This document shows positions 13,685 to 47,208 of a DNA stretch of 49,318 bases, piece after piece. Source of the stretch: Folioceros fuciformis (Eukaryota); NCBI GenBank assembly GCA_049999805.1, contig JBNGIO010006396.1, positions 347,691 to 397,008 of the forward strand, written 5' to 3'. The position numbers and the translations under genes were made by a program. The notes under the pieces are model-generated. The model made no database searches and was not told the DNA's origin. It saw nothing but the letters and a program-made list of their open reading frames with translations. Numbering within the stretch: the first letter of the stretch is position 1; every line of letters begins with the position of its first letter.

Positions 13685-13736
13685 TTTTGCGCCTCGCCAC
13701 GCCTCTCCCCGCTCAACGAGGCTGTGGCTTGCGCGT

Positions 13737-15737: not shown

Positions 15738-16092
15738 CGCCGTCCAGTCAGCTGGGATCCATAAAACTTGGAAAGAAGCTGTCCATTCCGTCTCCTAGTC
15801 CAGAAATAGCCTGCAAATTTGGAAACGAGAATTATACATCGTGATTCTGGGTTGCTGTAGCTGTTCATATATATTCAGTTCATTTCTAGTTGACAATTCT
15901 TAAGTGACATCTCAACTCAAATTCAAGCACGTGTTCGTCCGTCTAAGTAACCAGCTCTCTTTCAAGGTAACTACTGCTGTTAAGCCTTATTTTGTTTCTG
16001 TGCAACGCCGTCGTTTCTCTCCTGTGTTGCCGCCGCGTGAAGCCGGCGGCTCGGTGGATGCATGACCTGACCTGAGCTGGGCAGGGAGAGAT

Positions 16093-18012
16093 ATGGTGCG
16101 ACCAACGCGGCGGGAGCCGCAATCAGAGCAGCAGGGAAAGAAAGACCTTACAGGTGGCGCCGAAAAGAGGAGGAAGCCCGTGTTGGACAGATCTCATTTC
16201 TGCGACATCGGTTTGAGTGACAAGGGCATTGACCCAAGACGCGCCCATACATATGACCAGATTGTGACCAAGCAAGACTTGATGAACGAGTTCCAGTGGG
16301 TTGGGCGTGGTCCCATCAACCTCAGACAAGCTCTCACGATAGAGCGCTCATTTCTGAAAGCCCTGCGGGATAAGGTGTATCCTTATAGAGGCAATTGGGC
16401 CACCGTCGGCATGTGCTTTGCCAGAGGCGCCATCGCCTCGCATAGAGGTTCTCAAGTTGATTGGGCCACCTTCGCGTACGAATCCCAGTTTAGAGGCAAA
16501 TACGCTCTGAAAAGGGCAAGACTTGAGCCTCTGAGCACGGCTGCTTCACCTCCGAGCCAAAGAGAGGTCGTCCGGACTGCTCTCGATTTGTTGAAGGAGG
16601 CACCATGCCAGGAGAACCGGGCGTGCGAGATATCGGAGGAGGAAGAGCTCGGGCCTCAGGAAGGGGTGCTTGTGTGTGTGGGCCAGGAGGAAGAGCTCGC
16701 CGATGAGCCCAGGTCTGACCGTGACTCCGAGTTGTCCAATGGAATCAGGTGCAGCCGAGAGAGGAGGAATAGGGTCTACAACGAACTTAGAAACTGGATA
16801 AAATATCTCCGGATGATCGAGCATGAGAGTATGGAGCGCCAGGCGCGGGGAAGTGGCCCGAGTGAGACATCAAAGGCTGCTCAGAATCTGGAATCAGGCC
16901 ACCTTGAGCTAGGCCCGATTGGACCAAGTCCACAAGTGGACTTCAATGACCAACCGTACATGGATGTCTCCGGTGGTCAGGAATCAGCTTGCTTGCCCCT
17001 GCCACAGTCTTGGACAGGCCCTTGGTTTGAGGATATCAGGTCCTTGCCAAGCGGGCTTGGAAGAGAGCATCCTCAGCCTCGTCCTCAAACTGAGTGCCTA
17101 GTTGCGTGTAGAGGTGAGTTAATTCTTCAGGGTATGTTTGCGCTACGACTACTATCCCTGTAAATAGCGCTACCTCTGATTGTCTGGGCATGCTGACTCC
17201 CCTCATGCCTGGGCACCTTCGCTTCCCTCTTGATATGATGCTACACTTTCTCTGCATGCATGGTTCACAGCTTCAGAATTAACATGCACAACCGCATCTT
17301 ACAGACATCGGTGTAGACATTGTAGGATCATAGCACCTCTGGCATCCCTCCAGCCGGTGAGCTCTTTTGTTTGTCTCCGCTTAATTGTCTCATGCTTACT
17401 CGGGTGTGTACAGATGTTCATGTAGAGGCCATGGTGAAAGGAAGTGGTCCCCCAGGTGTGAAATCGCAGACCATTCAAGTCATGGAAACGAGGGATCATG
17501 AGCCTGGCTCGGGATCCGGACCGAGTCGACCAGTGTACTTGAACGAAGAAATGCAGGTGGATGTTTCCGGTAGCAAGGTGTCCGATTGCTCGGCCCTCGC
17601 ACAGTTCAGGGACCCCACGGTTGCAAATATGGGGACCCTGGCAAACAGGACTAGCGTATCGCCTCCGGAACCTCGTCCGAAACAGAGCCAGCAAGGAACT
17701 CAAGCTGTGCATGTACAGTCTCCAGAGTGTCGTCATGAACCTGCGTGCAAGGCTGCTTTGAATTCTCGTGTTGAGTTCATTCCGTTCCACATCGGGACCC
17801 TGTCAAGCAGGTCTAGTGCATGGCCTCCGGAACCTCGTCAGGAACAGAGCGAGCCAGGGACTCAAGCTGTGAATGTACAACCTCGAGAGTCTCGACATGA
17901 AGCTGCGTGCAAAGATGCTTCGAATTCTACCGGTGAGTTGATTCCTTTTCATGGATCCTCGAATTTCAAAGTCTTAGTTATTTTACTCGTGGCCTGGGAA
18001 TACAGTGTGTAG
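16093..18012 (+). CDS. Family B gene B2 (divergent paralogue, opposite strand, multi-exon)
   Basis: ATG-started 356-codon ORF with KRRKPVLDRSHFCDIGLSDKG...QDLMNEFQW...GMCFARGAIASHRGSQVDWATFAYESQFRGKY. Downstream exon in ORF 17371-18012 has the LNEEMQVDVS module and two 54-aa (162-bp) repeats. Confidence 0.75.
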
Positions 18013-18921: not shown

Positions 18922-19021
18922 NNNNNNNNNNNNNNNNNNNNNNNNNNNNNNNNNNNNNNNNNNNNNNNNNNNNNNNNNNNNNNNNNNNNNNNNNNNNNNN
19001 NNNNNNNNNNNNNNNNNNNNN
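18922..19021. other. Assembly gap (100 N)
   Basis: Run of exactly 100 N; true length unknown. Confidence 0.99.
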
Positions 19022-23419: not shown

Positions 23420-24851
23420 CTAAGGCAATCGACAAACTGGAAATTTTGAATTGTGGGAATCCAGCGACTCACCGGAAGAAGGAACGACGCAGGCATGCTC
23501 AACACTAGGCTCTGGAGGATGAACAATGCCAGCTTGCGTTTCCTCCTGGCTCAGTTCACGAGGTCGCTTTGAAGGCTTCGGGGCCCCAGTATGCTCAGAT
23601 TCAGGAGCCCTCAATTGTACCAGGGCCAAACTTCCGCGTTTCTTGCCACGAGAGACATCCCCTTGCATTTCCTGATGCGATTCCACCAGTCGACTCATTC
23701 CCGCCTGGCCAGGTTCACAATTATCCCTCGTTTCCAGATCCTCAACAGCCTGTAATTTCACATCCCGGCCACTTCGATTTGCCATGCCATCTGTATTTGT
23801 ACACACCCGAGATTATAGGCATCGGACAACTTTAGAAGCAATCACAAGAATGCCCGCAATTTGTGAATCTAAGGAATGGAATCGACTTACCAGGGGAAGC
23901 AGCTTGACACGCAGGTTGAGAAGTAGATCCCGGACCACACATGCCTGCCATAGACCTCATATCCACGAGCCCAGGGTCTAGAGACTGTGGCAGGGCCAAG
24001 AGAGCGGATTCATGGCCACAGGAAGCATTCACCTTCATTTCTTCGTTCAGGACGGGGCTCGGCTCAGGGTCGCTCACCTCCACATATTGCTGAGCAGCCT
24101 GCTCATTCCCGCCGCCTGAGCCACTTCCCTCTCCCATGGTCTCCAAGCTCACCTGCGTAAGCATATCGTGGGGCTTTGGCCAAAGCTCGAGGATTTTCCT
24201 ATAGAGCTTGTTCAGCTTCTCTTCCATTTTGGTCAAGCCCATGTACGTCTGAGACAGTGTGGGACAGCATTCAAACTCGGGCTTGTCCTCTTGTGCGTCC
24301 TCATGTCCTGCCAAAGCAAGAGTAAGCTGAGGTGGGGCCTCGTGCTCCACCTGGACATCCAACGCCGGCACATCCAGAGCATTCTGGGCCGCAACCCCTC
24401 CTTCCCCTTGCCTGGGATTAGACGTAGAAGGAGCAGCCGTCCGCAGAGAGTGTTCTGGTATCTTGGGAATGGCCCATCTCCCCTTGAACTGGGCCTCGTA
24501 GGCGAAGGTTACCCAGTCCACAGGGAAACCTCTCCATGCGGCAACAGCGCCTTTGGCAAAGGCGATGCCCGAATGGGCCCAATCGGCGCCTCTGTAAGGA
24601 TAAACCTTTTCTACCAGGTTTTTCAGAAATGCCGTCTTTATTGTCCGAGCGTGTGTGAGGCGGATGACTTTCGCGCCATCCCAGACGAACTCTTCCATCA
24701 CGTCCTGGTCGCTCACAATTCGATCCCAGCCACGGTGGTCTCTTGGACTAAGGCCCTGATTGCTCAGGCCCAGGCTGAAGAAGTAGTCCCTTTCAAGCAC
24801 AGGACCCCTCCTCTTAGGGTTACCTCCAGCCACTGCCATCGCCATCGCCAT
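23420..24851 (-). CDS. Family B gene B3 (close paralogue of B1, at least 2 exons)
   Basis: ORF 23832-24851 (GIAFAKGAVAAWRGFPVDWVTFAYEAQFKGRW) and ORF 23420-23806 (SHQEMQGDVSRGKKRG) match B1. Donor SPG|gtaagt at ~23890. Confidence 0.75.
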
Positions 24852-24999
24852 CGTCTGCTGCTCCTGCTCCTGCTGTTGCGTTGCTCTCGCCGATGCCGCG
24901 ACGCGCCTCGCCTCGCCTCGTCCCGCTTAGCGCAGTTAAAGCTTCCAACGAAAGAGTCGTGTGCGTTCAGTTAGCGCAAAAAGGGAATGAAGGGAAAGG

Positions 25000-27573: not shown

Positions 27574-30300
27574 TTACCAAGCCATGCTGTCTCTTAGCAG
27601 GAACTTGATGGACTTGCCCACGAGAGCTGTTCCCTTCAGAGCCCTATCAGTCTCTGCTCCAGCACTGGCTCGAACGACGTCGAAAAGCTGCTTCACTGCT
27701 GCTGCTTCGGACTGCAGCCCAGCAGCCATGAGCGCTGTGTATCCTTCCAGCACACCAGCAGTGTCCACATCTTTGTAATAGGACTCTGCTGGGAGTTGGT
27801 GTCTCCAATATCGAAGCTCCCAGGCATCAACCAGCTCCCTGGCAACGTGCACCTTGCAAGCCTGCACTGCTTCCTTGAATGCCCGGATGTAGATCTCCAT
27901 GCTGCTCCTCAGGTCCGTCCTCTGGACTTGGTGGGCAGGAAAGTCCTCTTCAGCAAATGCAGATATAAGGCTTGTTGTCTCTTCAGTCAAGTCAGGATTG
28001 GCAACCTTAGCATTCCGCGCCTGCCATGATGGGTGCTGTAACAACACTTTGACCCTCTGCTCCAGAATCTTGCTGAACTCAGATGAGTACATGGTAAAGA
28101 TCTCCTGGAATGCATCGTTTTCCAGGCTTTCTGCGTCCTGCCAGGAGCTCAGGTTGAAATCCGATGGTGAAGTGCACTGGATTAGGAGGGGAGGGGTGCA
28201 CTTGGCATCCACTTCAGATTTGATGCATTTCATCCTCTCTCGAACAACCTTTGTTACCTTCGCTGCAAGGGACGGCAGAGACGTTGTTTTCCTCCTCATG
28301 TAGTTCGTGAGCCGTAGAGCTTCCATCTGCCCAATGGTATCCACTGAAACTCCTGGCACTTTCTGGTTCTGGTTCTTCACGGCTGCTTCATAACTGGCCT
28401 TTGCTGCATCATAGCCAGCCTGCGATCCATCTGCCGGTAGTGGGTACTTCCTCGGACGCCCTCGTCCCCGTTTGACAGGCAGGACTGATAGTTGAATGCT
28501 TCCATTTCCTGTTGCCTCCTTTCCTTGAACCATATCTGAAGAGACCTTCTGAGGAATCATCAACAACAAAGAAGTCAGTATTCCCCATCGTGGTCATCTA
28601 CAGCCATGCTCAACACCGTGTACAATATCATTGCATCGACATGTGCTCACTCAACTCACCGTAGGCAACGGAACCACAGATTGTGGAGCGCCAGGCATAG
28701 GATCTGGAGAAACAATCGTCGAGACTGCCCCGCCACCGGCCTTTGCAAGATCAACCTTCAATGGATATTTCCTTGGCCGCCCTCGTCCCCGTTTCACAGG
28801 CAGGGCTGGATCAGGTGCCTGTGCGCTTGCAGCAAGCCCTGTTGCCACAGTTTGGTTAACCGGGCTCTCTGGTGCATTTGCAGCCACCTGCCAGCACAAA
28901 AGATCACGTCCCTGCCTCAGACGACAAACTTGATAGAGGAAATGTTCACCATCATCAAGTACTTCCACACCTTAGGAAAGGAATCCGGTGTTGGGCAAGA
29001 AATGACATCTCTTGCGGGAACACCAGAAGATGATGTGCCATCAGTGCTCATTCGAACCTCCCCTGATTCTGGAGTAAAAGGAACTGCAACAGGAGAGAAG
29101 CCTCCTTCAAGGGGAAACGCAGTGGTGTTGGACATCGAGTCCTCAGGCCCTGTCGTCATAGTCCTGCTCGCAATAGGTGTCAAGGCTTGCGTCAAGCTAC
29201 TATCTGCTTCTTCAACCGCACCCCACTCCACCAGATGAACCATTGTTTCAGGGTTGGGTTTCAAGGCACTGTCAGAAGTGGTTCTCAAGCCGGGTCTGCA
29301 GCAGGACAATGGTTTGGCATCTGAAACAGGATAATCCTCATCAGCCGAGTCATCGGAGCTGAGGACTATAGGCTCCGGGATTGGTCCCACGGTGGCAGAG
29401 TTAGTGCCAAACTTTCGCCTCTTGCCACCTTCAGACCCAGAATGACCAGTATCCCGCCTGGACGACCGCCATTCTTCGAAACTCACATGCTCAGACTTGG
29501 AACTAAATCCAGAATACCAGTTCCCGACAGATATAGGCAAGATCATGTCATATGGTTCATCATTCTCGAAGGGCTCCGTCTTCACAGAGGCCCCAAAACC
29601 CTCCCAAGCCCCGTGCTCTGGCAGGCTTCCTGCAAGCACAGGAAGTGCACATCGGGACAGGTCACTTTGTTCCACATCAAGTCCTTCGGGAAGGCCTTCT
29701 GTCCCCTGGGAGGATGTGATGGATATGGTTCCTGCCGTAAGCGATCGGGACGTGGCGTCATTCCTGCACTTCGATTGCACAGCTAGCCAAGCATGGCAAT
29801 CCAGAATCAAGCAACTCACCAGAATTGGTCAAGGTCGCCCGCAGGCTGGACACACACTGATGAGCCTGGGCTAGGCGTTGCTGACAATTCGTCAGCTCCT
29901 CGTTCTCTCGTTTCTTCTCGCCCATACGCTGTAGCAGCTGTCCCGCAAAGGTCTCATGGGCTTGAGCTCGCCTGTCCTTCTCCATCATCACCACTCGGTG
30001 AGCTTGTGCTAGCAACTCCACTTGCTCTGATATGCTCTTCATTTCTGCTTCATTTTCCCTCTTCTTCCTCTCCAGCTCTTCGGACATTTGCAGCAGAGAA
30101 GACGCCGCCTTCACCTGCGCCTCTGACATCCCCATCTCCTCGACTAATCCTAGCCACAAATCTCGCAAGGCCTTCCTGAACAAGCACTCAACAAGTGTCC
30201 TACCACCGGATCTGCTGCTCGGCTTCGGCCCCTCTTTCAGGAACCAATCCCAGCTCTACCGCCCCCAAAATCTACCATGGTGTCACATCCTTCCATCACC
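27574..30300 (-). CDS. Family A gene A2: coiled coil, disordered linker, two AT-hooks, WELRYW domain (multi-exon)
   Basis: ORFs 29758-30183, 28917-29819, 28651-28968 and 27574-28569. LPVKRGRGRPRKYPL occurs twice. In-frame junctions FPK|VAANA and PLPT|KVSSD. DFNLSSWQDA...FQEIFTMYSSEF...ARELVDAWELRYWRHQ matches A1. The 5' end is not resolved. Confidence 0.7.
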
Positions 30301-32099
30301 AGATCTCCCCCTGCTGAGCACGAAAAAGGGGCTGCGGCGATCTGGTTGAGCTCCGTAAGGACTCCTGCCACCGCACAGCCCAACTGACGCACGACTAAGC
30401 GCTCCACTGCCGAAATCGGAGACTGTACTTCTTTCCGAGGCGTTATAGGCCTGGGGCGTGAATAACAGACTTTGCAACGTGCCGTGCATGAAAGCCTGGC
30501 AATATTGTCCGTGCTGGATGAGCCCACCTGATCAGATACGTGAAGGCGATCAAGTGTCTCCCACACCCAACAACCTTTTCCCTTTGATGAGAGTCAAAGA
30601 GACGTAACGACATCGGGACATAGAGGTCTTGGTGCAAGCAAGCGGTTCTGCACATCGAGCTGGAGCTAACACAGTCTTCCTCATGCCGACAGCATTCGAC
30701 GGATGCCAAGCCTCGATGGGCAGGTTCAACATCCCCATCTTGAAGCGTGTGAGGCACACAATCTGCAGCTCCCCACAGGTGCGACGGTGTCATGGTGGAG
30801 GCAGAATCGGGCACCACACCCCACCAAGTGGAGATGCTGGCAGCCTCGCGAGGTTGTGGCTTCCCGGCCCCCGAGGCGGATTCAAGCACATGGGCACACT
30901 TGCCTCGGAATGAGGGTGCCAAGCATGAGCCCCCCAGCTGACATGCCGTGCTGACCCATGTTTCCAAACTTTCCAGATTCCGGAATTCCAGATTCCAGCG
31001 GCTCGCAGGGACATTTGTGTGGCCGCGTGATGGCATCTTATCAGCTCCTCACAACCATGTGGCTATGGCGGTTCTACATCCTGTGGTACAACCTGATAGG
31101 ATACCCCGGTTGCCCGCCTGCCAAGCCGCCAATCCTGGCCGCGTATGTATCGAGACACAGCTGATACACAGACCATGCGTGCCTTTCCTTTCACTTTTGC
31201 CTTTGCCTGTGCTCGATCAGAGTTTACATCGTGCTTGTGCCGGAATGAGGAGGAAACGCAAGAGACAAACGAGCACTTCCAACCGGCATGTTCTGTCCTA
31301 AGAGTTGTTATCCACGACAGTTCATGGCCCAGGAATACCGTCACCTTCGGAGTATCATCCACTCATGGGTCATCTTCAAATTCAGCTGCTAAGGCAGTTC
31401 CATCCCATGCTTCATTCACGCTGCGTGTCTTGAGACTCGTGTGTTCACCCTGCTGACAGATTTGAAGCAAGTCAGCCTATTCCTGGAAGTTTAAGCCCGC
31501 CTCTCTCTCTGCTTGCTTTATCTTCAAACCTTGTCCTGCTTCCGAGGCTCAAGATATGCACACCTCTTTTCTAACGAGCTTGGCTCCGAACGGGCCTACT
31601 TCATCCCATATTGGATCGTGAAATTTCGCTGCCCCGCACAGCCGCGGTGGGCGAACGTCTGGGTGCCACCCCTCACATCCCAACGCAAGAGCGGAGAGCT
31701 GCGTCGTGAATTTTTCATCGCGTAGTTTCTTGTGACTGGGAACCGGTGGTGGGCTGTGTAGTCCTCCCATTGTTTGTGCTGCTTCGGATTTGCTGGTTCT
31801 TGACGAGGCTGTGTGTGGGGAGCGCACGCGTTGTGTGGTGGGTGTCCGGCGGTGGAGCTTGGACAGAGCTCAGACCAGGTAGTGAGGATTGGGCTCGGGA
31901 GGGTGTGTGTGCTCCTGTAGGCGGAGCTGGGATGTGGATTGCGCAGGATTTGGAGGGATTTTGGATTGCGTGTTAGGTCTGTGGAAGGTTTGTGGTCGAA
32001 GTGGAAGAGGGGATTTTCAGGTTGGGGAGATTTGGGGCATGAGGTAGCTAGAGACGGGTCTGGTTCTTGTTTTGTTTGGCCAGAAATTGCAACGACGAG

Positions 32100-35000
32100 A
32101 TGGGGGACTGGTACGAGCGGGATTGGATTCGTCGACAGGTGATGTCCTCAAACTGCTAGGGAGAAAAGCGTTTGCGGACTTTTCAGGAATGTCTTTTTTT
32201 TCCCCCTCCTTTGGGAGCCTCACGGTCTAGTCTGCTGTTTGCAGAACAAGGCCAAGCAGTGGCTCGAAGTTGTGACTGGGCAGCCCATACCTCCTGATAC
32301 TAATCTTCAAGATGTACTTGCAGATGGCAATTTGCTGTAAGTTTGCTTTTCGAAGGGACAGTCTATTCGGACTCTGATTCAGGAATATCATTCCCACTAA
32401 TCTTGCACTTTTCAGGTGGTTGGCAGCAAGGAAGATTAAAAGTTTGATGAAGATAGAGGGAACAGAAGAGAAAAACCGGAGGAAGAGTGCTTACACTCGG
32501 TATGACAATGTGGCCGAGTTTATCCAGGTTGGTGACGAGGAATATTACTAGTCCTGTTGCCATCGCTAGATGGTGTTAACATGAAGGACATGCTCATTGT
32601 GCAGGTCTGCAAGGATGTTGGAGTAAAAGACATTGACCTATGTGTGGCATCTGATGTCGTAGAACGAACAGGGGATTTGCATATGCCAGTCACATGTCTG
32701 CGAGCCCTCTCGAAAAAATGCAGAGCAAAGGATCTTCCAGTAAGGGCCTGATGAGCGCTTGATGATTCGATTTGGTATGCTTCACTGGCTTACGGCTGTT
32801 TTCCGTTTTCCAGATTCCAGATTTTGACAATGTGTCAGGCTTTGGTTTGGCGAGCACTCCCGGTACTTCTTTGGGACATCCTATCTGTTGTGGGTGGATG
32901 CTTTTGTTTGCATTTCAGAGAAACTGATGTGTGCAATTGGTGGTCTTGCAGACAGTACAACTAAAGATAATGACAAGTTTCCAGGTCTTGTCATGGTATG
33001 ATCTTCTTACACCTAGTTTCTTGACTCGGGTTTGAAAATGTGTAGGTAGGTCTTCTTGCCTGCTGACTTGAATTTTGTTCGTCATGGTTTTTTTTGTACA
33101 GCCATCTCCCGCACCAGAAGCCGTTGTAAGCCGGTCATCTTCAGAGCTTGATTTAGGAGCTGTAAGGCGCCTTTCAATGGATGACAATTTGTTTAATTCT
33201 CCAGACAGCCTAACTCCTCCTGCGAAGGTGAGCATGGCTTCTTTGCAGTGTGCAGATTTCCCTTAGGTTTCAAGGTTTATCAAGTCTACTCAAATGGTCG
33301 ATGCAGGTACCAGCGGTGGAAACTGCCTCATCTCTGACTCCTGAGAGCTCACAAAAATCCTCTCAAGCACCAACACCTGGAGCTCCAACAACTCCTGAAA
33401 GTCTGCACATACCCTTGCAAGCATTGGATCCTGGCGCTCCAAATGTTGCGACCAATGGATCCATTCCATTGCAACCTCTCCCTGTGGAGGTCCCAAGACC
33501 CGAGTCACAAGCTGCAAGCGAGGAACCTCCAGGTCAAAGAAGATCATCGTCTCCTCCAACATTGGGAACCCCATCACCCATGGGAAGTGGGGATGCCCTT
33601 GGTCCGGCCTCTGAGCAAGGTTTAGGCAAGGTTGAAAGTGATGGTGCGGATACAAGTGGGAAGGAGGAGGCTACTGGTACAGCAGCAGACCTTGCAGGCA
33701 ACAAGATTAGAGGTGCCGGTGCGGAGAAAGTACTTGCAGGTGACAAGGGCGATGTCTCGCGTTCGGTTAACAAGGGAGATATTTACAATTTATCAAGCCC
33801 AACAACCCCAGCCGCCCCAACTCCAGCACCTCCAAGGAGGAGGAGGCCCGTAGATGATTTACCTGGAGGATCTTACATAGTAACAACCAATGACAGGAAA
33901 AGGGACAAGGATCCGCCCACAAGGGGATCTACCACAAAGCCTCAGGCCAGCCTTCCTGACAGAAGGTCAGGTGCAGATGTTTCTACGACGGTTGGTTCTA
34001 CTGCTTCCGATAAGACTAGAAGTGGAGAGCTGTTACCGAAAGTGGTGCCCCCTCCCTCACAGCAACCAGCAGCAGAGAGTAGGGTAACAGATGCCAAAAG
34101 CAGGGCAACAACTCCCGTTGTTCAGCCCGTTACCCGGGAACAAAGCATTGGGAGTACAACGTCCAGGGCAACATCTGCTGCTCCTATGCAGTCTTTAACA
34201 TCAGAGAAAGGTGTATCTTCTGCTCCCTTGAGAACGGCAACCGCAGCTCCCCAATCTCCTGTACCCGAAAAAGTGGCTATCTCAACCACTCCTGTGAGTC
34301 CAGGGGATAAGCGACCTGCTCCGTCTAAGGCGCCTGTTACTGCAGGCAAGACACGCTCTGATGACAAGAAAGCTGGAGATGCTGCAAGGAAGACTGTTGT
34401 GACGTCCCATACAAATCCAAATGGCACCCAGACTCAGATTCCAGCAAAGACAAGTTCTTCAGTTGTCGATGACAAACGGAATCCAGATGTCCCGTCAAAG
34501 GCAACACCTGCTCCTTCCCAGCCTAGACCTGTTGAGAAGAGGCCAGGAAGTGCACCTTCCAAGGACGCTGCGACTGTGGTCAAGCCCAAGACCAGTGACA
34601 CAGGAATGGCCCAGCCCAAGCCCAGTGATAAAGGAAAGGAGGCTGATACACCGACGGTAAGAAAAACTCATACCCATGATGCTTCTGCCACACATTCTCA
34701 TATGATGGTCCCCCTTTTGCAGAATTCTTTAGTTCTAACTCCATTCCCACAGAACCAGGTCTCGAGAAAACGACTATGGATTCCAGTCATAGCAGGTGCC
34801 GTCGCTCTCGTGGGAACTTACCTTGCAGTGCGCTCCAGGTACAGATCCAGGTTGTTTGCTTAGGCAACTAGTGTAACAAAGGGAGCATGGGGAAGAGTTT
34901 TTTTTTCCTTCGCAGGGTTACCTGGGATTTTGCAGAAGTTGCGTTTCAAAAGCAGGTACTTCAACTGCTGAGGTGTAGGGTCCATTTGTCAAAAACAGAT

Positions 35001-35304
35001 CTAGCTGCATAAGGCATCGATGGAGGCAGCGTGCTATCTGTCTACAGATGGCGAGGCCCAACATGTGCCTCAGCTTCCTCCCTGGCTGTTTCTGGGTAGT
35101 TTGACTAACTGCTGCCTCTGTTTGTGTTATGGCTGTGCGTTCAGGAAACCAACGGCAGTGATTTATGAGGTCAAGCAAGGGGACACTCTGTACAAAATCT
35201 CCAGAAGGAGTGGCAAGAGCAACTGGGAAGAGCTGGTTCGGATGAACCCTGACATCAACAACCCAAATCTCATCTATCCTAGTGAACGTCTCAAATTGAA
35301 TTAA
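32100..35304 (+). CDS. Calponin-homology (CH) domain, long S/T/P/K-rich linker, transmembrane helix, C-terminal LysM domain; multi-exon
   Basis: Spliced N-terminus MGDWYERDWIRRQ|NKAKQWLEVVTGQPIPPDTNLQDVLADGNLL|WLAARKIK...YDNVAEFIQ|VCKDVGVKDIDLCVASDVVERTGDLHMPVTCLRALSKKCRAKDLP|IPDFD is a CH domain. TM segment WIPVIAGAVALVGTYLAV. Phase-2 intron 34839-35144 joins in frame to KPTAVIYEVKQGDTLYKISRRSGKSNWEELVRMNPDINNPNLIYPSERLKLN (LysM). Confidence 0.85.
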
Positions 35305-35817
35305 CCAGGGGTAGGTGCACGGATCCTTGCTATATAAGGAGAGCGCTTCCCGCGGATGTGTGAGGGTCAATGTAAATTCATTGGCCATCTGCTTTGTGAG
35401 TCAGGAACCCAAGGTCTCGAGAAAGAAATGTCGAGGGACAAGGTCTTGAAAGCCAATTTTTGCGTTATCGTTTCTTCTGTATCAGCTCTACTTGTGAAAT
35501 TGAAAACCGATTGAACCCTGTCTCTGCGCTGCCCTACTGTAGTACGAATTTCTCCTGTCGGGATTGGATTCCAGGCACAGCAAGGTTGAGCAGTATGTGA
35601 TTTTGATAAGACAAGACTTTTCGTTGTAGAGTCTTCCGAATGACAAACATACTTATTCTTAGCATCATACAAACTTGTAATAAGATCTAATTTGGTCCAT
35701 ATCGCTAACTAGTGCACATACAAGTGGGAAGGAGAACAGCCGAGAAAGTTCTTGCACTGATGAAGGGGATGCCTTCCGTCTTGATCAACAAGCAAATCTA
35801 CACATTTGGATCAAGCC

Positions 35818-35901
35818 AAGTAACTACTCCAACTTGATCTAAGTAACTACTCCCACTTGATCTAAGTAACTACTCCCACTTGATCCAAGTAACTACTCCC
35901 A
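35818..35901. repeat. 23-bp tandem repeat, ~3.6 copies
   Basis: aagtaactactcc(a/c)acttgatc(t/c) at 35818, 35841 and 35864; partial at 35887. Confidence 0.95.
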
Positions 35902-37516
35902 TAGATAGAAGGAGAAGGAGATCCTCCACTTGAATTCGGTACACTGAAAGCATCGAAGTCTACACGTAAGGGCGGCTGTGGCTTAACTTCGGCATACTAA
36001 ATGCACCAAAGTCCAGGAGCAAGGGCGGCTCTGGCATTTGGCACAGCTGTAGCTGACGCAGCAGCAGTAACACGTTTTCTGTCCAGAGAGCTTCAGCACT
36101 CCTCAAGCCATCACGCTGTGAGCTGCCTGCAGCTGTAGTCCTGTACGCGTACACTTGACGTTGTCCCGATCTTGCGATTCCCAACTCTGGGCAATGCCCT
36201 AGATCCCTTTCGATGTGCACAGACTCAAAGGTAACAAGGAAATGCGGAATTCGGGCAAGGTGGTGAACGATCGTGGTTGCAACCATACGTGCAGCTTGTG
36301 CGTCCCACCCTGCTCTACGAAGAGCTAACCCTGATCTGGATACCAATCTGCTGTTCGTTGCGGGAGCTGCATGAGCTAACTGTTGTGCACAGTGGATCAA
36401 GAGCTGCAGCGCTTTTCTTTCCCAGGTTCACCATCGACAAAGTCCTATTGCGATCTGGTACCCAATCTGTCATCCACCTGGGCCGTGGGTCACGGCGTCG
36501 TGTGGTTGAGCTGATTCCATCTTACAGGAGACGTGCCTTCTATGGCCCGGAGCTTCTCACGGAAAGGAAACAGTCTCTGCCAATCTGCCATCGACGAGCA
36601 TGCAGGTTTTGCAATTTAAAATGGATCGCTACTGGATCGGCACGTGATACACCAACCAATCGGGAACCCGGGAGCGTTTAGCCACATCCCATGAAGGGGA
36701 AGCAAAAGTAACGTGGTGAACAAGCATCGCCCCTTCCTGCTCCTTTCGACCATACACGACAAGCATCACATGCCCGAGCACTTGTCGGGCATGGCCAGCA
36801 ATCAGGACATGATCCGTGCACATACCTATGTCACTGCAATCTGTGTTTACGCTGTCAAAAACAAACCCGGCATGCATCTTCCAGACTCAGCACGTTTTGC
36901 ATGCTTGTCAACCAGGCAGCTCCCAAACACGCCATCGTTCAACGATCCTCCCATTCAGCAATGCTACCGCACTTCGGCAACTTCGAGTTCCCTACAAACC
37001 CAACAGTCTTCTGCTTCTCTCCCTCTCCCTCCCGTTCCCCGCATCTCTCCCTACCATCCCCTGATCTCCCCAGTTTCCATGACGAAAGATGCCATCCTCG
37101 AAGAAGTCCATTTCCCTACTTTTGGGAAGGCTTTTAAGCTAAAGGATCCTATACTTTATCGAAAAAGAGATGAGAGATTCCCTTTACCCAAAATTGAGGA
37201 AGAATCACATGGGGGCTAGCCTCCCTCAAAGATCAACCTCGTGACTACATGCAAAACTAATCTGAAGTAGAGTAAAATATAAATTTTAATAAGCCTCTTA
37301 ATCGAAATTATGAAATAAAAACTCAAAAATATTCAAAATTACTAAACTTCAAACTGGCCTAGGACGGCCATGGTGAGCTTGTAGCCGTGAGAAGGAGGTG
37401 AATGTCCATGTCAAGGAGAGTGTCGTGCGGTAGAGATCTATGCTTGATCATCGCTGTGAGTAAATAGTGGATTTCGGTAACTGAACCTATTCTCAGATGT
37501 AATTTCTACAATCAAG

Positions 37517-39130
37517 ATGGCCCGCTCGAAGCGTTGGACTGTCGGCTGCCAGAGGTGCTGCCAAACGAAGAAGGATGTCTTGGAGCTCTTGAATGAAGAA
37601 AAGCACGAGGTGGAAAATGTGCAAGCGAAAGTATGGAGACCGCCGAAAAATCATGTTGGCCAAAGCGCAGATGACAGGAGTGAAGAATTCGACTCATTTC
37701 TTCAACTGGCAGCCTGGAACGCACGCAAGGATCTTCCCGTGTTTGAGCCGAGGTTAGTTGGTGCCGCGCTTCCACCGATTGCGGAGGAGCAATCCGAAGA
37801 CGAGTTATGGCCTATTCCAGAGGAGCGTTCTGGAGAGTTCATTTCGGGCCCCTGCTGGAAGGAGAAGAGGCATCGGGAGAGAGCTCAGCAGGTTGCGGTG
37901 AGGGCACATACGGCAGAGGGAGGAGGAGATTGTGATGTTTCAAACACAGCGGAGCTGCTGGTGCAGGCTCGAGATGACGCAGGAAGTGTCTCACGGACTA
38001 AGGGAAGAGGAACAAGTGAGGAGGAGGTGTTCTTGAAGGATCGGAGGAAGGGTGTGAAGGCAGATTTGGGAGAGCCACCCCGAGTTGACGAACGTGAAGG
38101 TCAGGAGAAGGGGACGCACGTTCTGAGAGACGAGGAGGGGAAGGAGGAAGGAGACGAGAGTGCATGTGTAGATGTGAGCTTGGGACGGGATAGTGAAGAA
38201 CATGAGCTGCAGCTGGTGAGAGAGAGGCTGAAATTCTTGAGGCTGCCACCCGGGGATAGCGGGAAGTCATTGCCGCGTTCTTGTAACACAGAGTACGGCG
38301 ACACAGATGGCAAGGGATTCTCGGACGGAAATCGGCGGACGGTCACATCCAGGGAAGGGAAACAACGGGCCTCACGTAATTCGACCGTAGTGGATCACGG
38401 TGGTCCGAGCAGAAGATGCAATGCACCAGGATACATTGCTGATCCAGACATGTTTGCCTTGGAGGCGACGAGCTGCAAGATCCATATTCAGCAGTTTTTC
38501 GATCAGCTGAGTTCGTCTATGACTGATGCGGGAAGCCACAGGATGAGTTGCAGATTGCAGAATGCCAATAACGATGGAGTGGAAACGTGGCCTTCTGGAT
38601 CCGAGGCGGCAGCGTTCTACGTCAAAGCTTGCGGAACTATGGCCATTTTCCGCAACTTCGAGCAGGAGTCCTTCGGCCTGAAGAACAAGGAGGCGGCCAT
38701 CTTCTCACACCCTTCTTCACGCCAGATTGCCTTCATGGAAGATTTTAACACACAATCAGCCAGTCACGATTCTGTCCTCCAGTTCACGAAGATGAAGACT
38801 GAATTATTGGCAGAGACGTTTGGCTACCCGAGAGAGGATTGGCCTGACCTTCTCACGGAATCTTGTTCCCGAGCACTGCTATCAGTTTGGGGATTGCATA
38901 AGTTAGCCTTTGCCTTCGAGCCTCCCGTTACCATGTTCCAAGTGTTTCCTTCCACATCCTTCGACCCTCTACACATGGAGCCCATATGCACTGAAAAGAT
39001 CCCCAAGTCAGTCTTCTCCAAGTTCTCTGGTCTGGTCCAGGTACAGTTCATGGTGACACCGGGTTTCCATGTACAGGACAAACTGCTAGTCAGGAGTCAA
39101 GTATACTGCGCCAGCCGGAAGGCGACATGA
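37517..39130 (+). CDS. IRK-interacting protein / GIL1-family protein (single exon, 537 aa)
   Basis: The C-terminal FRNFEQESF...FTKMK...DWPDLL...SVWGLHKLAFAFEPPVTMFQV...FDPLHME...VQFMVTPGFHV..LVRSQVYC is the GIL1/IRKI C-terminal signature. Confidence 0.85.
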   Translation: MARSKRWTVGCQRCCQTKKDVLELLNEEKHEVENVQAKVWRPPKNHVGQSADDRSEEFDSFLQLAAWNARKDLPVFEPRLVGAALPPIAEEQSEDELWPIPEERSGEFISGPCWKEKRHRERAQQVAVRAHTAEGGGDCDVSNTAELLVQARDDAGSVSRTKGRGTSEEEVFLKDRRKGVKADLGEPPRVDEREGQEKGTHVLRDEEGKEEGDESACVDVSLGRDSEEHELQLVRERLKFLRLPPGDSGKSLPRSCNTEYGDTDGKGFSDGNRRTVTSREGKQRASRNSTVVDHGGPSRRCNAPGYIADPDMFALEATSCKIHIQQFFDQLSSSMTDAGSHRMSCRLQNANNDGVETWPSGSEAAAFYVKACGTMAIFRNFEQESFGLKNKEAAIFSHPSSRQIAFMEDFNTQSASHDSVLQFTKMKTELLAETFGYPREDWPDLLTESCSRALLSVWGLHKLAFAFEPPVTMFQVFPSTSFDPLHMEPICTEKIPKSVFSKFSGLVQVQFMVTPGFHVQDKLLVRSQVYCASRKAT

Positions 39131-40324: not shown

Positions 40325-43284
40325 ATGACGGTGGCAGAGGGTAGGAAGAGGCTCGACAAGACGTTAGCGTCACCTGCTCTTACCGACAAAGCTACCGTTA
40401 GGAATATAGTGTACAGCCAGCTCCTCAGATCGTCTCCTGTGGTTCCAGGTAACTTGCCTCTTGCAGTAACGGTGTGGGTGGTGCGATTGTGCGTTTAGGA
40501 GGTTTGCGGTGAACGGTCTGCTAATGTTGGGGCTTGGGTTTGCGGCCAACCACAGATGGGAAGGATGATTTAGCTCAGGCAGACTTGGGGAAGCCTCCCG
40601 TGGAGGCGATTGATACGTATAGTGGCGAGGTTTGGGCGTTTCTAGAAGCTTTGAGGAGCACCTCGGGAGATCGTTTTGGGAAGCTCAGCGAAGGTGATGA
40701 CGATCATGGCGGATGGAAGGTAATGTGGTCGTGTAACCTAGTGGCAAGTGAAGGAAGGACACATAAGATGCATGTAATGAGTGTGATTTTCTTCTCCTGG
40801 TGCAGTTGAAGGAGGAGACAAGCCGATTCCGAGTCATGTACAGGGAAGGCTCTGACGGGACACCAATCCACACCTTGTGTTTGGAGGGAATCTTGGAGGG
40901 TCATATTCCTAATGGTAAGCTTTCAACGGTGCAGCTTGAAGCATAAGAGGGCTTCTTTAATGGGTTTATCATTGGCTTCGATAAGCATTGAGAGTAAGGA
41001 CGCCTCTTCCGGCATTTCTTGCAGCACTCTGCGTGAGCTGGGAAGCGCCTCTGTTCAGAGAATGGTAAGTCGATTCAATGCCTTGGTGTTCAGACATGTC
41101 ATCTTGTCCTGTGAACTTCACCTGAAAACTCAATTGGATTCAAGGTGGCCGCAATTTTCGATTCCAAGTTTCAAGATTTTGGAGTCAAAGTGGGTGCGAC
41201 GGATACGGGTTGGGCAAGACTTGGCTGCTCTCAGGTATGGAAAGCTATCAAGAATGCTCCATTGTTCCAACAATAGGTTCTTGACTGAACATTTCATTCT
41301 GAATGAAGGCTTCGTTTTTTGTGGATGCATCATGATGTACGTGTTGCTCTTATGAGAACGGCTCGTATCCTCAGATTTAAAGTACCATGGCCGTTTGCCC
41401 AGAGAGAGATTGTGTTTTCTTTGTTTGAGCTGGAGTACTTTCAGGAGGATCTTATTTTTGTACTTATGCATTCTGTAAGTGGCAGCTCTTGTCTGTTTCT
41501 ACATGTAGCAGATAATCCGCAATTGCTCATTTCACAATAGTGTGCATATGAGTGGGTAATTCCCTGAGCTGGGCTGACATTGGGTAGAACATTTCGACCA
41601 GGTTCCTCCAACGGATAGAATTGAAGAGAAAGCTTATGGATTCAGTGTCACGGATATCCCTCCAATCCCTCACTCTGTGGTGCGCATGGACCTCGGTGGT
41701 GGTTTTGTCTTGCAAAGAATGGCATCGGGTGTTTCGTATTTTCGGTACACTCCAATGCCAGTCGTTTTCAAACTAGAAGCATTTTGCAGAAGATGTGCAT
41801 AGATGGTATTGTAAAGCATATTCCTTTTCTTCTGGCAGAACGATCATGAATCTGGACATGAAGCTGGACTTCGTGCCACCCTGGGTCATAAATTTCATGT
41901 CCAGGCAACTAGCGGGTCAGGGATATAAGCTGTTCCAGAAGGTACTCTGCTGCTTTGGCCGGAAAAATTCTTTCTAATGGTTTCTGTTGCTCCATGTGCT
42001 TAGGTTTGCTGTGTGCCTTTCTTGTTTTAGGCTGTTTTGCAAGTGGATGCTGGGAAGGGTGGAAAAAGCTTTCAGCAACTAGTCAAGACTGAGCCATTGT
42101 ACGAACGGGTTCGGCAGGCACTGGAATGTGCAGAGAAGTACGAGTTTGGGAACTTGAATGTTGCAGCGGAGCAGGTTTCAGCCATGAAAGAAAGCACTCG
42201 AGACAAGGGAAAATCTTTGCAGGGGAGTCTGCGGAGGCTGGGCAGTGCAGAGAACTACCGGGTGGCACCATTACCGGAGGCACAGCCGCCAATAGCTCAG
42301 CCGGATCCTATTGTCCCTGATCCGGCCTCTACTGTTCCTGTCAAGCTGGCTGACTCAGGAGCCATCGAACCGACTTCGTCAACAAGTCCCATGTCACCTC
42401 CTAGTGAACAGAGGCTGGTGAGCCCGGTACCTGAGTCAGACAAGGGGAGCAGTGTGACAATCCCTCCTGTGGACGATGCTACAGATCCAGAAGTGAAATG
42501 GGCGTTACAAGTGTTGGAGAGAGTTATTGCCTATGTGAGGCAACATGGGACAGGATCTCTTCCTTGCCTCCAGCCTCGTGAGGAGCCCACTATCGTGGAG
42601 GAAAGACAACAGGATCAACCTCCGATTCAGCCGGAGGGCAATGTTGACTACCGAGCTTCTCAGCTGAAGATGGCAGGTGGGAATTCTCATCTCTCTGTTG
42701 TGGAACGTACAACAGAGAACGTTGTCAGCAGAGGTCCAGGACCTGTGAAGGTGGAGGCCAAACCTGTGACGGCGGAAACCAAGCCTGTGAAGGGGGAGAC
42801 CAAACCTGTGAAGGTGGAGACCAAACCTGTGAAGGTGGAGACCAAACCTGTGAAGGTGGAGACCAAACCTGTGAAGGTGGAGACCAAACCTGTGAAAGCG
42901 GAGGCCAGACCTGTGACGGGGGATGCCAAACCTATGATGGTGGAGGCCAAACCTGTGAAGGCTGATGCCAAACCTATGATGGTGGAGGCCAAACCTGTGA
43001 AGGCTGAGAGCAAACCTGTGAAAGTGGAGTCCAAACCTTCTTCACCTCAACGAAAGGGTCGTCCTCAGCGGACGGATTCTGGTCCACAGCAACCCCAGAG
43101 ATGGTCGATGTTCAAGTGCATACCGAGCAGGCTGAGCAGAAGACCTCCTCTGCTGATTGATGGACCACCAGAAGGGGAAGGGAAAATGCGTGAACAAATC
43201 TCTCCGGCCCTGCCCCGGAGTCCCGACACTGGCGAAATTGTATCAGTAGGCAACTTGTGTATAAGCGAGACAGACAGAAATTGA
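40325..43284 (+). CDS. START/polyketide-cyclase-like lipid-binding superfamily protein, multi-exon, with a long low-complexity C-terminus
   Basis: Exons RKRLDKTLASPALTDKATVRNIVYSQLLRS, HGGWK|LKEETSRFRVMYREGSDGTPIHTLCLEGILEG, WPQFSIPSFKILESK, FKVPWPFAQRE, VVRMDLGGGFVLQ, RTIMNLDMKLDFVPPWVINFMSRQLAGQGYKLFQK, DPEVKWALQVLERVI. GT-AG boundaries. Confidence 0.88.
42740..43037 (+). repeat. Coding 21-bp tandem repeat (KPVKVET-like, ~14 copies)
   Basis: aaacctgtgaaggtggagacc and variants within the last exon of the START-like gene. Confidence 0.95.
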
Positions 43285-43628: not shown

Positions 43629-46600
43629 ATGTTTGTGAGACGTCTTGAACGAGTCGAGACTGTAGGGATGGCGCCAGGGAGGTCTGCTGCTGCAGCTGCT
43701 CATGAGTCCCCGGACGAATCGGCGATCAAGACTCTCGAGAGCCTCCTCATTGATGACAGCAACCTCCCGGCAAATGACCCAAAACTGCCGAATTCCGGGC
43801 CCCATACCCAGTCCTGTGTTGGTGGGCACTCCAATACGACTTACAGTCTTGCTGGCAAGACTTGAGCAGTCGTTGGAGGACTGAGCTCACTCGTGTTGCT
43901 GCCTGCAGGTGATTACACCTCTACAACACAGCGAGCCATGAGGAAGTCTCGGATCGGGAGCTCAGGGATGTTCACCATCTTGCCCGGGGGCGGGCTCGAG
44001 TTTCAGGATCTCACGTACACTGTCATGAAGAAGGTATTGTCATCGAGCGTCGAGATGAATTATATTAGCCAGTGTGTATGTAGTAGCATTGGCTGGAATG
44101 GCAGCAGCAGCAAGGAATTGAAGTGCGAGGCCTGTCGTCTTGAAGGTGACAATGGAGAACAAGTCCGTTGTGAAGAAGGAAGTGAACCTGCTGCATGGTA
44201 TCACTGGAAACGCTGCTCAAGGAGAGGTAGGCAGTATTAGCTCGCCACATGGAGCTGGTGCTTGGAAGTCGGATCGTGTGTCGGTACAGCTCTTGAAAGA
44301 ATCACGAATCTAGCAGAATAATTGCGTTCCGAATTCTGCTCCCGGCAGGTGACAGCGATCATGGGGCCGAGTGGTGCTGGAAAGTCCACCTTCCTGGATG
44401 CTCTGGCAGGAAGGATCTCATCTGGAGCTTTGGAAGGAAGTGTCATGGTCGATGGCCAGCCTGTGACTGCTAGCGAAATGAAGATTCTGTCCGCGTACGT
44501 GATGCAGGATGACCAGCTGTTCCCCATGCTCACGGTCTTTGAAACCCTCATGTTTGCTGCGGAAGTCAGACTGCCTCACCAGATGTCGACTGAGGACAAG
44601 AGGGCCAAAGTAGTTCATCTCATCGACCAGTTGGGGTTGACGGTAGGTTTACAGTCAGACAGCCCAACATCCCAAGCCTTCTTGGTATCACATCGAAAGG
44701 ATGCAAGAGCGTGTAACGGGCATTGAACATCTGATGAAGGGAGAAGGTTTGTCTCGATGCATGTCCTGCAGGGAGCCACCAACACTTACATCGGGGACGA
44801 AGGTCGGAGAGGGGTTTCGGGAGGGGAAAGGAGAAGAGTGTCCATTGGGGTGGACATTATCCACGGACCTCAGCTGCTGTTCCTGGACGAACCCACGTCC
44901 GGATTGGACTCCACCAGTGCCTTCAGCGTGGTGGAGAAGCTGAAGGCCATAGCTCAAGCTGGCAGCACGGTTCTGCTCACCATCCACCAGCCTTCCTTCC
45001 GGATTCAGCAGCTTCTCAGCAAGATTATCATTCTTGCCAGGTACAAGCCACACCACTCAGGTCATGCCAAACAAGGATTCTCTGTGATACTGGGATCTCG
45101 TCACAGCCTTCACAATCATGGACTCCGAAATGTACTCCATCCTACATGCGTGGGATGTGTAACATGTTGGGTTCTTGGATGCAGAGGACGGCTCATCTAC
45201 CAAGGCCCGCCTTCCAGCGTGGAAGCTCATCTGTTGGCATTCGGGCGAGAGGTTCCGTCATCCGAGAACAGCATCGAGTACCTTCTGGACGTGATAGTGG
45301 AGTACGACAAATCCGATGTTGGGCTGGACCCGCTGGTGCAGTTCAATCTGGATGGCAAGAAGCCCATGCCGGACCACACACCTCAGCCACGGACTCCTGG
45401 ACAGGTTATCTCCCGGTCTGGAGAGCTCACCAGCATCGTGACCGTCCCCCGATTTGGACATGTCCTTGCGGAGGCCAAAGGCTACCCCAACTACAGCAAC
45501 AAGGCGTCTCGGGAGAACTCGCCAGCTCGCACGCCAGCAGCCACTCCCAGGACAGGGCAAGGACAAGTGAACGACTACTTCGATCCCTACGACAGCTATG
45601 ACCACTCCTTGAACGCCAGGGACAAGGTGCCCAAGCTGGCTGTTCTTTTCTACAAAGATCTGGGAGAGTGGTTTGACAAGGACAGAGCTGGAGCAGGAAG
45701 GACACCCAGCCGGGGAGGATTGTTCCAAACAGGTGGAGCCCCCAAGACACCGAATTATGTTGTGCGCAGAACTCCTTTGAGGTGAGTTGGGTGGAACCTT
45801 CCGGTTGTTGGATCGGGTTCAGGATCTTTGGATGCTCAGATCGGAGCTAGATCTGGATGATTGCTCAGAATTTTGCTGACTGGAGATGAGTTTCAAAACC
45901 CTCAGGGTACAAGCTCCTGCTACTACTACTGGAAAGATTGCCACCCCGAATCGAAACTCTGCAGCAGCCGCAAACAAGTTACATCACCTGAGCAAGTCCT
46001 TCACTCCCGGACGCACCATGTCAGAGTCCGAAGGGACGCTTGAATCTGACGACTTCGACACACTGTCGGACGAGTTGATCGAACACAGAAAGTTCGCAAA
46101 TCCATGGTTCAGAGAGGTGAGCCTGCAGATGCCTTCGCGTACCTGATCGCTCTGCTGAAAAGAGACACATTTTGAGAAGCCATTTGACAACGGTATGTAT
46201 GCTGCCAGGTGAAGGTACTCATGTGGAGGAATTTTCTCAATATCAAGCGGACTCCCGAGCTATTTCTATCCAGGCAAATGGTTATCACCACCATGGCATT
46301 CATGCTTGCTACGTTGTTCAAGAGACCGCCCCATACTGTCTCTGGAGCTACGAATATCCTGTCCTTCTACATATTCGCTGTATGTCTTCTCTTCTTCTCC
46401 TCCAATGACGCAGTTCCAACATTCATCCAAGAAAGGTTCATCTTCATCCGAGAAACGTCCCACAATGCCTACCGGTCTTCAACGTAAGCCGCACCCGCGT
46501 AAATCACGGTCCTACTACATCTCCAAGTCCTCACGGAGTCAGAGTCTTTTGTCATTCGACCCCAGCATTTGGAACTAATCTGCAACTGTGTGTGTTTCCT

Positions 46601-47208
46601 GCAGATATGTGATTGCGAACTTCCTAGTTTACCTTCCTTTCCTGGCCATACAGGCTATGACCTTTGTGCTCATCACGTGGTTCGTCGTCCTGAACTTCCA
46701 AGGGGGTTTGCAGGGCTTCATGATCTTCTGGGTCATCCTGTACTCATCTCTCATCACGACAAACTCTTTCGTCATGTTCGTCAGCGCTATGGTGCCCAAC
46801 TACATTATGGGATATGCAGCTGTAATCGCCCTCACGGCTCTCTTCTTCCTCACCTGTGGCTTCTTCCTTGATAGGGAACACATCCCCAGAGTGTGGATCT
46901 GGCTTCACTGGTTGTCTACAATCAAGTACCCCTACGAAGCTCTAGTCCACAACCAGTTTCGAAAGATAGATTGTTACAACAACGCAAGCCTGCCGTTCCT
47001 CCCAGTGCCTGGTCCCCTGGTGGCACTCGTGCCTTCCGCCATCGATGTCGCTAAGGACTGCAACATCAATGGGCAAGACATCTTGAAGGCTCTTGCCATC
47101 AAAGGCGGCATCACTACAGATGTTGGGGTTCTTCTTCTCTGGGGTGTCTTTTATCGAGCGCTGTTTTACATCATACTGCGCTTCTACTCCAAGAATGTCC
47201 GAAATTGA
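43629..47208 (+). CDS. STR: ABCG half-transporter STUNTED ARBUSCULE (STR) orthologue, ~9 exons (start ATG 43629 or 43668)
   Basis: Walker [38 protein letters not shown], signature [12 protein letters not shown], Walker [16 protein letters not shown]-type features: [31 protein letters not shown], long TP-rich linker with [52 protein letters not shown]. Confidence 0.92.

Follow-up and report, generated by a model that had tools for sequence, protein, structure and literature searches.

A transcribed Folioceros fuciformis gene for a single-pass membrane protein with a CH-like head and a terminal LysM domain, a candidate tether at the plastid envelope

The window analysed in the current study is a 49,318-nucleotide stretch of Folioceros fuciformis DNA (GenBank assembly GCA_049999805.1, contig JBNGIO010006396.1, positions 347,691 to 397,008 of the forward strand), which carries at positions 32100-35304 a spliced gene for a 730-amino-acid, single-pass membrane protein. 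A preliminary description of this DNA, made from the letters alone, had proposed that a gene hidden among short reading frames could be assembled here through canonical splice sites. This proposal is borne out, with its start and end exact. When the region 31500-36000 is read and canonical splice sites are joined, ten exons on the + strand form a single frame with a coding sequence of 2193 nucleotides, and all nine introns begin with GT and end with AG. The predicted product consists of a calponin-homology (CH)-like head, a long spacer of low complexity, one transmembrane helix and a LysM domain at the C-terminus. Each of these domain types is known, and as judged from the sequence their combination appears to be new, with no functional description found.

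A ten-exon gene and its transcripts

The frame opens at the ATG at 32100, upstream of which an in-frame stop codon is located at 32049-32051, and it runs unbroken through all ten exons. Exon 1 (32100-32138) is followed by three exons that encode successive pieces of the CH-like region (exon 2, 32245-32336; exon 3, 32416-32527; exon 4, 32605-32739). The spacer occupies exon 5 (32814-32862), exon 6 (32952-32995), exon 7 (33102-33227) and exon 8 (33307-34656), and it ends at the beginning of exon 9 (34753-34838), wherein positions 34753-34773 are spacer and positions 34774-34830 encode the transmembrane helix. The last intron (34839-35144; 306 nucleotides, phase 2) is exactly the one that had been foreseen. 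Beyond it, exon 10 (35145-35304) encodes six linker residues, the LysM domain (35164-35298) and the stop codon TAA (35302-35304). The coding region proved to be free of tandem repeats, and an Rfam scan of the window returned zero matches.

Contigs from a public run, designated X1, agree with this gene model. The run contains 71% of the words sampled from 31500-36000, and we take it to be RNA data on account of intron-less contigs that occur beside an unspliced one, the run type itself being a guess. All ten of the X1 contigs on the stretch match at an identity of at least 99%, with zero differing letters. They skip ten segments, nine of which coincide exactly with the predicted introns after the stated cut offsets are applied. 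The corresponding joints are 32138/32245 (exon 1 to exon 2), 32336/32416, 32527/32605, 32739/32814, 32862/32952, 32995/33102, 33227/33307, 34656/34753 and 34838/35145. The longest continuous view of the transcript comes from a contig of 2742 letters, which spans the 5' leader through exon 8 and includes 88 letters beyond the joint at 34656/34753. Three other runs contributed little, as X2 matched 19-21 letters only, and X3 and X4 gave no contig on the stretch.

The joint between the transmembrane exon and the LysM exon (34838/35145) is the one for which the preliminary description had recommended an RNA check, and it is present among the X1 contigs, where its shorter side comprises 26 letters plus 4 ambiguous ones and thus falls under the 31-letter rule of thumb. 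We infer that this short side arose where a 31-mer contig breaks off at a branch in splicing, and chance does not account for an exact 26-letter match at the predicted acceptor 35145. Exon 10 is covered by a contig (35142-35522; X1 record 3) that begins at 35142, the point at which all forms converge. The 34838/35145 joint speaks against a separate gene for the LysM domain, a reading that we rejected. The preliminary description had named as its own refutation a set of transcripts that end at 34863, with the LysM exon belonging to another gene. This is not so for the form joined at 34838/35145, but a minor form may end there.

Indeed, the last intron is processed in more than one manner. A second joint in X1, 34955/35145, reveals an alternative donor (34955/34956) within this intron, and an unspliced contig (34927-35171) represents its partial retention. 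We modelled 12 exon layouts for the 34955/35145 form, nine of which stop before the LysM domain (for example at the TAG at 34861-34863) and three of which hold the LysM in frame behind an insert (cassette exons starting from 34872, 34886 or 34896). Where exon 9 runs straight on to the TAG at 34861-34863, the product ends in the helix and a tail of about ten basic residues, an arrangement that resembles a tail anchor, and a LysM-less form of the protein may therefore exist. The depths of the X1 contigs (90.2, 24.4 and 16.5) are unusable as isoform ratios. Contig depth, a poor measure, is similar on either side of the last intron (56.6 and 58.6).

The transcribed region extends beyond the frame at both ends. 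X1 record 1 is continuous over 31500-32135, and hence an unspliced 5' leader is transcribed from 31500-32099. By its own numbering this record begins 108 letters upstream of 31500, which would give a leader of approximately 700 nucleotides (31392-32099). Four upstream ATGs are located in the leader, and their short frames comprise 2-21 codons. This leader is unusually long, and it may instead be an overlapping transcript that was merged into the contig. The 3' untranslated region reaches at least from 35305 to 35522, as judged from X1 record 3. Approximately 300 bases past the last contig-covered base (35522), a 23-base tandem repeat is present in 3.7 copies at 35818-35901.

Domains of the predicted protein

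The LysM domain is the most readily assigned part of the protein. The translation of exon 10 (52 amino acids) matches the Pfam LysM family PF01476 with an E-value of 2.7e-11 (43.7 bits, the cutoff being 20.9), and the match covers positions 1-42 of the 43 in the profile. The sole other Pfam match of this exon is to LysM2_NFP, at 21.7 bits and thus below the cutoff of 36. No cysteine is encoded in the exon. A search of the PDB with exon 10 yielded ten LysM matches at E-values of 0.01 or lower, and none of these is a plant receptor. The best is the LysM of the spore-coat protein SafA (7r1l; E 1.5e-7, 45 residues aligned), and the top matches are all bacterial, including, besides SafA, a Thermus endopeptidase-related protein, LytE, YaaH and TsaP. 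Of these, SafA, the Thermus protein and LytE represent peptidoglycan-binding LysMs. Beyond the bacterial proteins, the search matched two CVNH-LysM lectins of fungi and a single fusion construct. Among protein-language-model clusters (ESM Atlas), those nearest to the LysM exon are small single-LysM proteins of a generic kind, and the few clusters with recorded taxa are bacterial or viral, which we regard as a lead only. These findings sustain the earlier view that the protein ends in a cysteine-free LysM of bacterial type. A LysM of the plant receptor type was considered and rejected, given that no receptor LysM family reaches its Pfam cutoff and no plant receptor is found among the PDB matches.

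Upstream of the LysM, residues 657-675 (34774-34830) form the sole strong hydrophobic peak of the protein, with a mean Kyte-Doolittle value of 2.06 over 19 amino acids, and the next best segment reaches 0.91. Basic residues flank this helix on either side (SRKR before, RSRK after). It is preceded by 656 residues and followed by 53 residues if a 21-residue helix window is used, or by 55 if the helix ends at residue 675. The N-terminus is acidic and charged, and lacks a hydrophobic segment that might serve as a signal. The single helix with basic flanks and the missing signal peptide of the preliminary description are accordingly both upheld. Between the head and the helix lies the disordered, low-complexity spacer of 526 amino acids (32814-34773; exons 5-8 together with the first part of exon 9), 61% of its residues being S, T, P, A, G or K. 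Its charge is uneven, with a net -14 over residues 131-330 and a net +23 over residues 331-656, and it matches no Pfam family.

Because there is no signal peptide, and because 656 residues precede the only helix, general membrane-insertion rules (PMC8644595) suggest that the head and spacer should be cytosolic and that the LysM should be located across the membrane. Tail-anchored proteins carry no more than about 30 residues after their helix, and basic residues adjoining the helix are a reported feature of tail anchors in the outer membranes of plant organelles (PMC8644595). We considered a strict tail-anchored protein and rejected this assignment, as the tail is too long.

Assignment of the N-terminal domain is less straightforward. 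When exon 2 (30 amino acids) was compared with the PDB, three matches were obtained at E-values of 10 or lower, and all three are to the CH domain of IQGAP1 (2rr8, 3i6x and 5l0o; E 0.024-0.027). Residues 2-28 encoded by this exon (32248-32328) align with chain residues 51-77 of 3i6x and 29-55 of 2rr8. The 27 aligned residues are located at the start of the IQGAP1 domain, in the region of its first helix, and they occupy the same position in the protein described here. Exons 3 and 4, searched singly, gave no PDB match at E-values of 10 or lower, and exons 2, 3 and 4, also searched singly, gave no match in Pfam, where the CH family PF00307 spans approximately 100-110 residues that would here be split over three exons. 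No usable match for exon 4 was found in the ESM Atlas. The ordered N-terminal region, comprising approximately residues 14-125 (32245-32739; exons 2-4), is about the right length for a CH domain, and farther on its sequence presumably follows the pattern that calponin- and IQGAP-type CH domains typically have towards their C-terminus, which is a lead rather than a test. On the basis of this weak match and the sequence pattern, we consider the N-terminal domain to be probably a CH domain. Thus, the CH domain of the preliminary description stands in part, with a weak but specific match for exon 2 and nothing for exons 3 and 4, and the Pfam check that it had recommended likewise recovered the LysM (PF01476) but no CH domain from exons 2-4 taken singly.

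We also looked for relatives. A protein homologue search with the spacer exon scored 8000 candidates, none of which reached an E-value of 0.001, and the same search with the LysM exon (7 candidates) and with exon 4 (3 candidates) yielded no relative, all three being weak blanks. Against a library of protein representatives, the LysM exon matched 5095 proteins at E-values of 0.001 or lower. Among the best 150 of these 5095, 149 contain at least three matched stretches and one contains two, and therefore a single-LysM orthologue could not have surfaced there. A metagenome scan with the frame of exon 4 produced 593 pattern matches, none of them a relative. With the LysM exon, the same scan identified 72 loci, wherein full-domain matches range from 37 to 54% identity and short partial ones reach up to 73%. 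These are probably generic bacterial LysMs. The uncharacterized plant homologues that the preliminary description had thought possible did not appear in these searches. The blank searches are weak, and it does not follow from them that the protein lacks relatives. A literature search returned no paper, as judged by title, that is relevant to a pairing of calponin or CH domains with LysM, either in plants or generally.

A candidate tether between cytoskeleton and plastid peptidoglycan

Two known proteins offer a context for a plant LysM that might face plastid peptidoglycan. In a Phytozome search for families that occur only where a plant has the complete peptidoglycan pathway, van Baren et al. 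(2016) identified PPASP, a two-part streptophyte protein with a 21-amino-acid hydrophobic helix, a C-terminal LysM and no transit peptide, which has been proposed to reside in the outer chloroplast membrane with its LysM on the N-acetylglucosamine (GlcNAc) of peptidoglycan intermediates, and for which the support is computational only (PMC4815162). Among the matches listed in our literature search, no follow-up on PPASP beyond this paper was found. The C-terminal portion of the protein described here is laid out similarly, with a helix (residues 657-675 or up to 677), eight to nine further residues and then a LysM running to the C-terminus, again with no transit peptide. DipM, in turn, is a LysM protein that was localized in a glaucophyte to the peptidoglycan layer of the plastid and in a moss to the surface of the chloroplast (PMC4015805). 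It is comparable in that it is encoded in the nucleus, carries LysM and acts between the envelope membranes on the peptidoglycan of the plastid. However, DipM is soluble, a hydrolase that descends from cyanobacteria and combines several LysM repeats with an M23 peptidase (PMC4015805), whereas the protein described here carries one LysM and a membrane helix, lacks an enzyme domain and has a predicted cytosolic head.

The resemblances to other proteins are more partial. The LysM is closest to that of SafA (7r1l), its best solved match, which is cysteine-free as well, yet in contrast to SafA and other bacterial LysMs it is eukaryotic, is separated from the helix by an intron and is fused to a head that is predicted to be cytosolic. 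As in IQGAP1, a single CH or CH-like domain appears to be located at the N-terminus, as judged from the exon 2 alignment, but the IQ, WW and GAP-related regions of IQGAP1 are absent. Plant receptors of the LYK and LYP types are distinguished by a signal peptide, by two to three LysMs linked through cysteines and by either a kinase or a glycosylphosphatidylinositol (GPI) anchor, none of which is present here, and Pfam detected no kinase domain in any exon. The plant LysM proteins classified by Zhang et al. (2009), namely LYK, LYP/CEBiP, LysMe, LysMn and F-box-LysM, share the LysM as such (PMC2728734). The protein described here differs from these classes in its one LysM, which is of bacterial type, and in its lack of a signal peptide, a kinase, a GPI signal and an F-box. 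A combination of CH and LysM is not among the architectures that the available portion of that paper names (PMC2728734).

A further analogy concerns the manner in which the protein might work. In nesprins, a CH head is followed by a long spacer, by a helix and by a tail that is short and luminal. Nesprin/KASH proteins and CHUP1 combine a cytosolic part that binds the cytoskeleton with a long spacer and an anchor in an organelle membrane. Nonetheless, the protein described here belongs to neither family, since it ends in a LysM and has no KASH ending and no spectrin repeats, and since CHUP1 is anchored at its N-terminus and is not known to carry CH or LysM.

With these comparisons in mind, we tentatively favour the possibility that the protein is a tether from the cytoskeleton, specifically actin, to plastid peptidoglycan at the plastid outer envelope, and we assign this reading a probability of roughly 0.35. 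The evidence for it is architectural only, and topology, membrane, ligands and role are all what we infer from it. The membrane would most likely be the plastid outer envelope, which we prefer because of the PPASP-like module, the moderately hydrophobic helix and the RSRK sequence that follows it. In line with the proposal for PPASP, the LysM would then grip the peptidoglycan layer within the intermembrane space. Actin filaments would be held by the CH-like head, and the protein would thereby link the relic wall of the plastid with the cytoskeleton of the host, so that plastids could be anchored, positioned or divided. This reading gains plausibility from the precedents of PPASP, in which a helix and a LysM track the peptidoglycan pathway, and of DipM. 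By extension of the analogy, the protein might be a plastid counterpart of the LINC bridge of the nucleus, and the first to link the relic peptidoglycan wall of the plastid physically with the host cytoskeleton, wherein a PPASP-type anchor would grip peptidoglycan beneath the outer envelope and an actin-binding CH head would be held in the cytosol on a leash of 500 residues. We consider this more specific proposal rather doubtful. If it were true, plastid peptidoglycan in land plants would have a mechanical role in the anchoring, movement or division of plastids, which bears on the question of why a peptidoglycan pathway has been kept for the plastids of many land plants and of what, on the host side, holds or reads this wall. 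PPASP is the only proposed peptidoglycan-associated envelope protein of the host side, and finding a version of this module joined to a cytoskeleton-binding head would suggest a concrete mechanical function and would offer a handle for localization and knockout work.

Several observations weigh against a plastid tether. The presence of basic residues on both sides of the helix leaves its orientation unfixed by charge, and the tail of 53-55 residues exceeds the limit of about 30 that applies to tail anchors. LysM domains also bind chitin and other GlcNAc glycans (PMC4815162). The CH assignment depends on 27 aligned residues at an E-value of 0.024. PPASP is short and begins with its helix, whereas 656 residues, comprising the CH-like head and the spacer, come first in the protein described here; moreover, the available portion of the PPASP report mentions no long, CH-bearing form from the Phytozome species that were searched (PMC4815162). 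The gene may thus lie outside the PPASP family, with which its layout was compared by description only. Finally, no relative was found in the protein, Atlas or metagenome searches, weak as these were.

Other membranes have to be considered as well. The architecture and topology would also fit a type II protein of the plasma membrane, with an apoplastic LysM on microbial chitin or peptidoglycan, or on a GlcNAc-bearing component of the wall, and with the head on cortical actin. Such a protein would act as a kinase-less sensor or as a linker of wall, membrane and cytoskeleton, and the plant LysM proteins of assigned function that are described in the available portions of two papers do sense chitin or bacterial peptidoglycan (PMC4815162, PMC2728734). 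We nevertheless judge a location in the plasma membrane to be rather unlikely, given that there is no signal peptide, that there is one LysM rather than two or three, without cysteines, that the receptor LysM families fall below their cutoff (LysM2_NFP, 21.7 bits against 36) and that the nearest solved LysMs are bacterial. In addition, a helix only 53-55 amino acids from the C-terminus would have to insert late or post-translationally (PMC8644595), as cell-surface receptors seldom do. Were the protein to be located there after all, it would represent a new kinase-less LysM surface protein of plants that is wired directly to the cytoskeleton. A tether in the endomembrane system (endoplasmic reticulum, Golgi, nuclear envelope or vacuole) would place the LysM in a lumen, on GlcNAc glycans such as the core of N-glycans, and the cytosolic head would position the organelle on the cytoskeleton as an analogue of nesprin/KASH proteins. 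We regard this explanation as quite improbable. It draws on the nesprin-like order of head, spacer, helix and short tail and on the fact that late-emerging helices often insert in the endoplasmic reticulum (PMC8644595). However, the C-terminus has no KASH-like ending, nothing here ties the LysM to luminal glycans in plants, and a moderately hydrophobic helix with basic flanks has in plants been reported for the outer membranes of organelles (PMC8644595).

Two further explanations concern the origin of the gene and the nature of its head. The helix-LysM exon pair might have been shuffled onto a CH-domain gene to create a young, lineage-restricted chimera that is transcribed and has no conserved tethering function. 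The absence of a relative from every search would accord with such an origin, as would the location of the LysM on an exon of its own behind the longest intron, which is alternatively spliced, and a window rich in repeated transposon-like frames. Nevertheless, all of the blank searches are weak, the frame is intact over ten exons, contig depth on both sides of the last intron is similar (56.6 and 58.6, for what this poor measure is worth) and the LysM retains a full-length profile match, and hence we consider a chimera without such a function to be distinctly unlikely. Also unlikely, although it is compatible with the other readings, is an N-terminal domain that binds no cytoskeleton, either because its fold is not that of CH or because it is a CH domain for protein-protein contacts, as many single CH domains are, in which case the head would serve in signalling or scaffolding and the protein would be a membrane-anchored LysM protein instead of a tether. 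Actin binding is not common to all calponin-type single CH domains, and exon 2 alone was matched, at E 0.024, with nothing for exons 3 and 4. Yet the sole PDB match is to the CH domain of IQGAP1, which the literature on that protein terms its actin-binding domain (PMC6829592), and the match is located at the start of the domain, as it is here, in an ordered region of about the right length.

Neighbouring genes and repeated frames

The remainder of the window carries several further genes and repeats. Near its beginning, the coding sequence for PsbO (oxygen-evolving enhancer protein 1) occupies one unbroken frame at 2305-3060 on the + strand, for which the best PDB match is 8c29_O (386.7 bits). 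Five chains score 375-387 bits and the next group scores 309 bits; we take the former to be seed-plant PsbO and the latter to be from Chlamydomonas. These scores, together with a sub-cutoff GIL1/IRKI match in the gene downstream of the CH-LysM gene, support a streptophyte and probably a land-plant origin of the window. A glutaredoxin exon is located at 4360-4752 (+) (PF00462, E 3e-8).

Farther along, a repeated long frame is present in three copies, at 12188-13765 (-), 16066-17160 (+) and 23832-24923 (-), with pairwise identities of 74%, 34% and 38%. The copies at 12188-13765 and 16066-17160 were scanned and belong to no Pfam family, and the frame probably encodes an uncharacterized transposon protein. 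A second pair of related frames (7525-8841 and 27574-28590, both on the - strand) shares 29% identity (E 2e-20) and likewise matches no Pfam family, and each of its members is found within a few kilobases of a copy of the first repeat. An assembly gap of 100 N is located at 18922-19021.

The next gene downstream of the CH-LysM gene is represented by a frame of 549 amino acids at 37481-39127 (+), the end of which matches the GIL1/IRKI C-terminal domain at 23.8 bits, just below the cutoff of 27. It is followed at 42031-43281 (+) by a frame composed of many tandem seven-residue repeats rich in Lys, Pro, Val and Glu, whose Pfam match is sub-threshold and reflects low complexity. Finally, several exons at 44322-47205 (+) encode a half transporter of the ABCG type, with matches to both ABC_tran (E 9e-15) and ABC2_membrane (E 1.6e-20).

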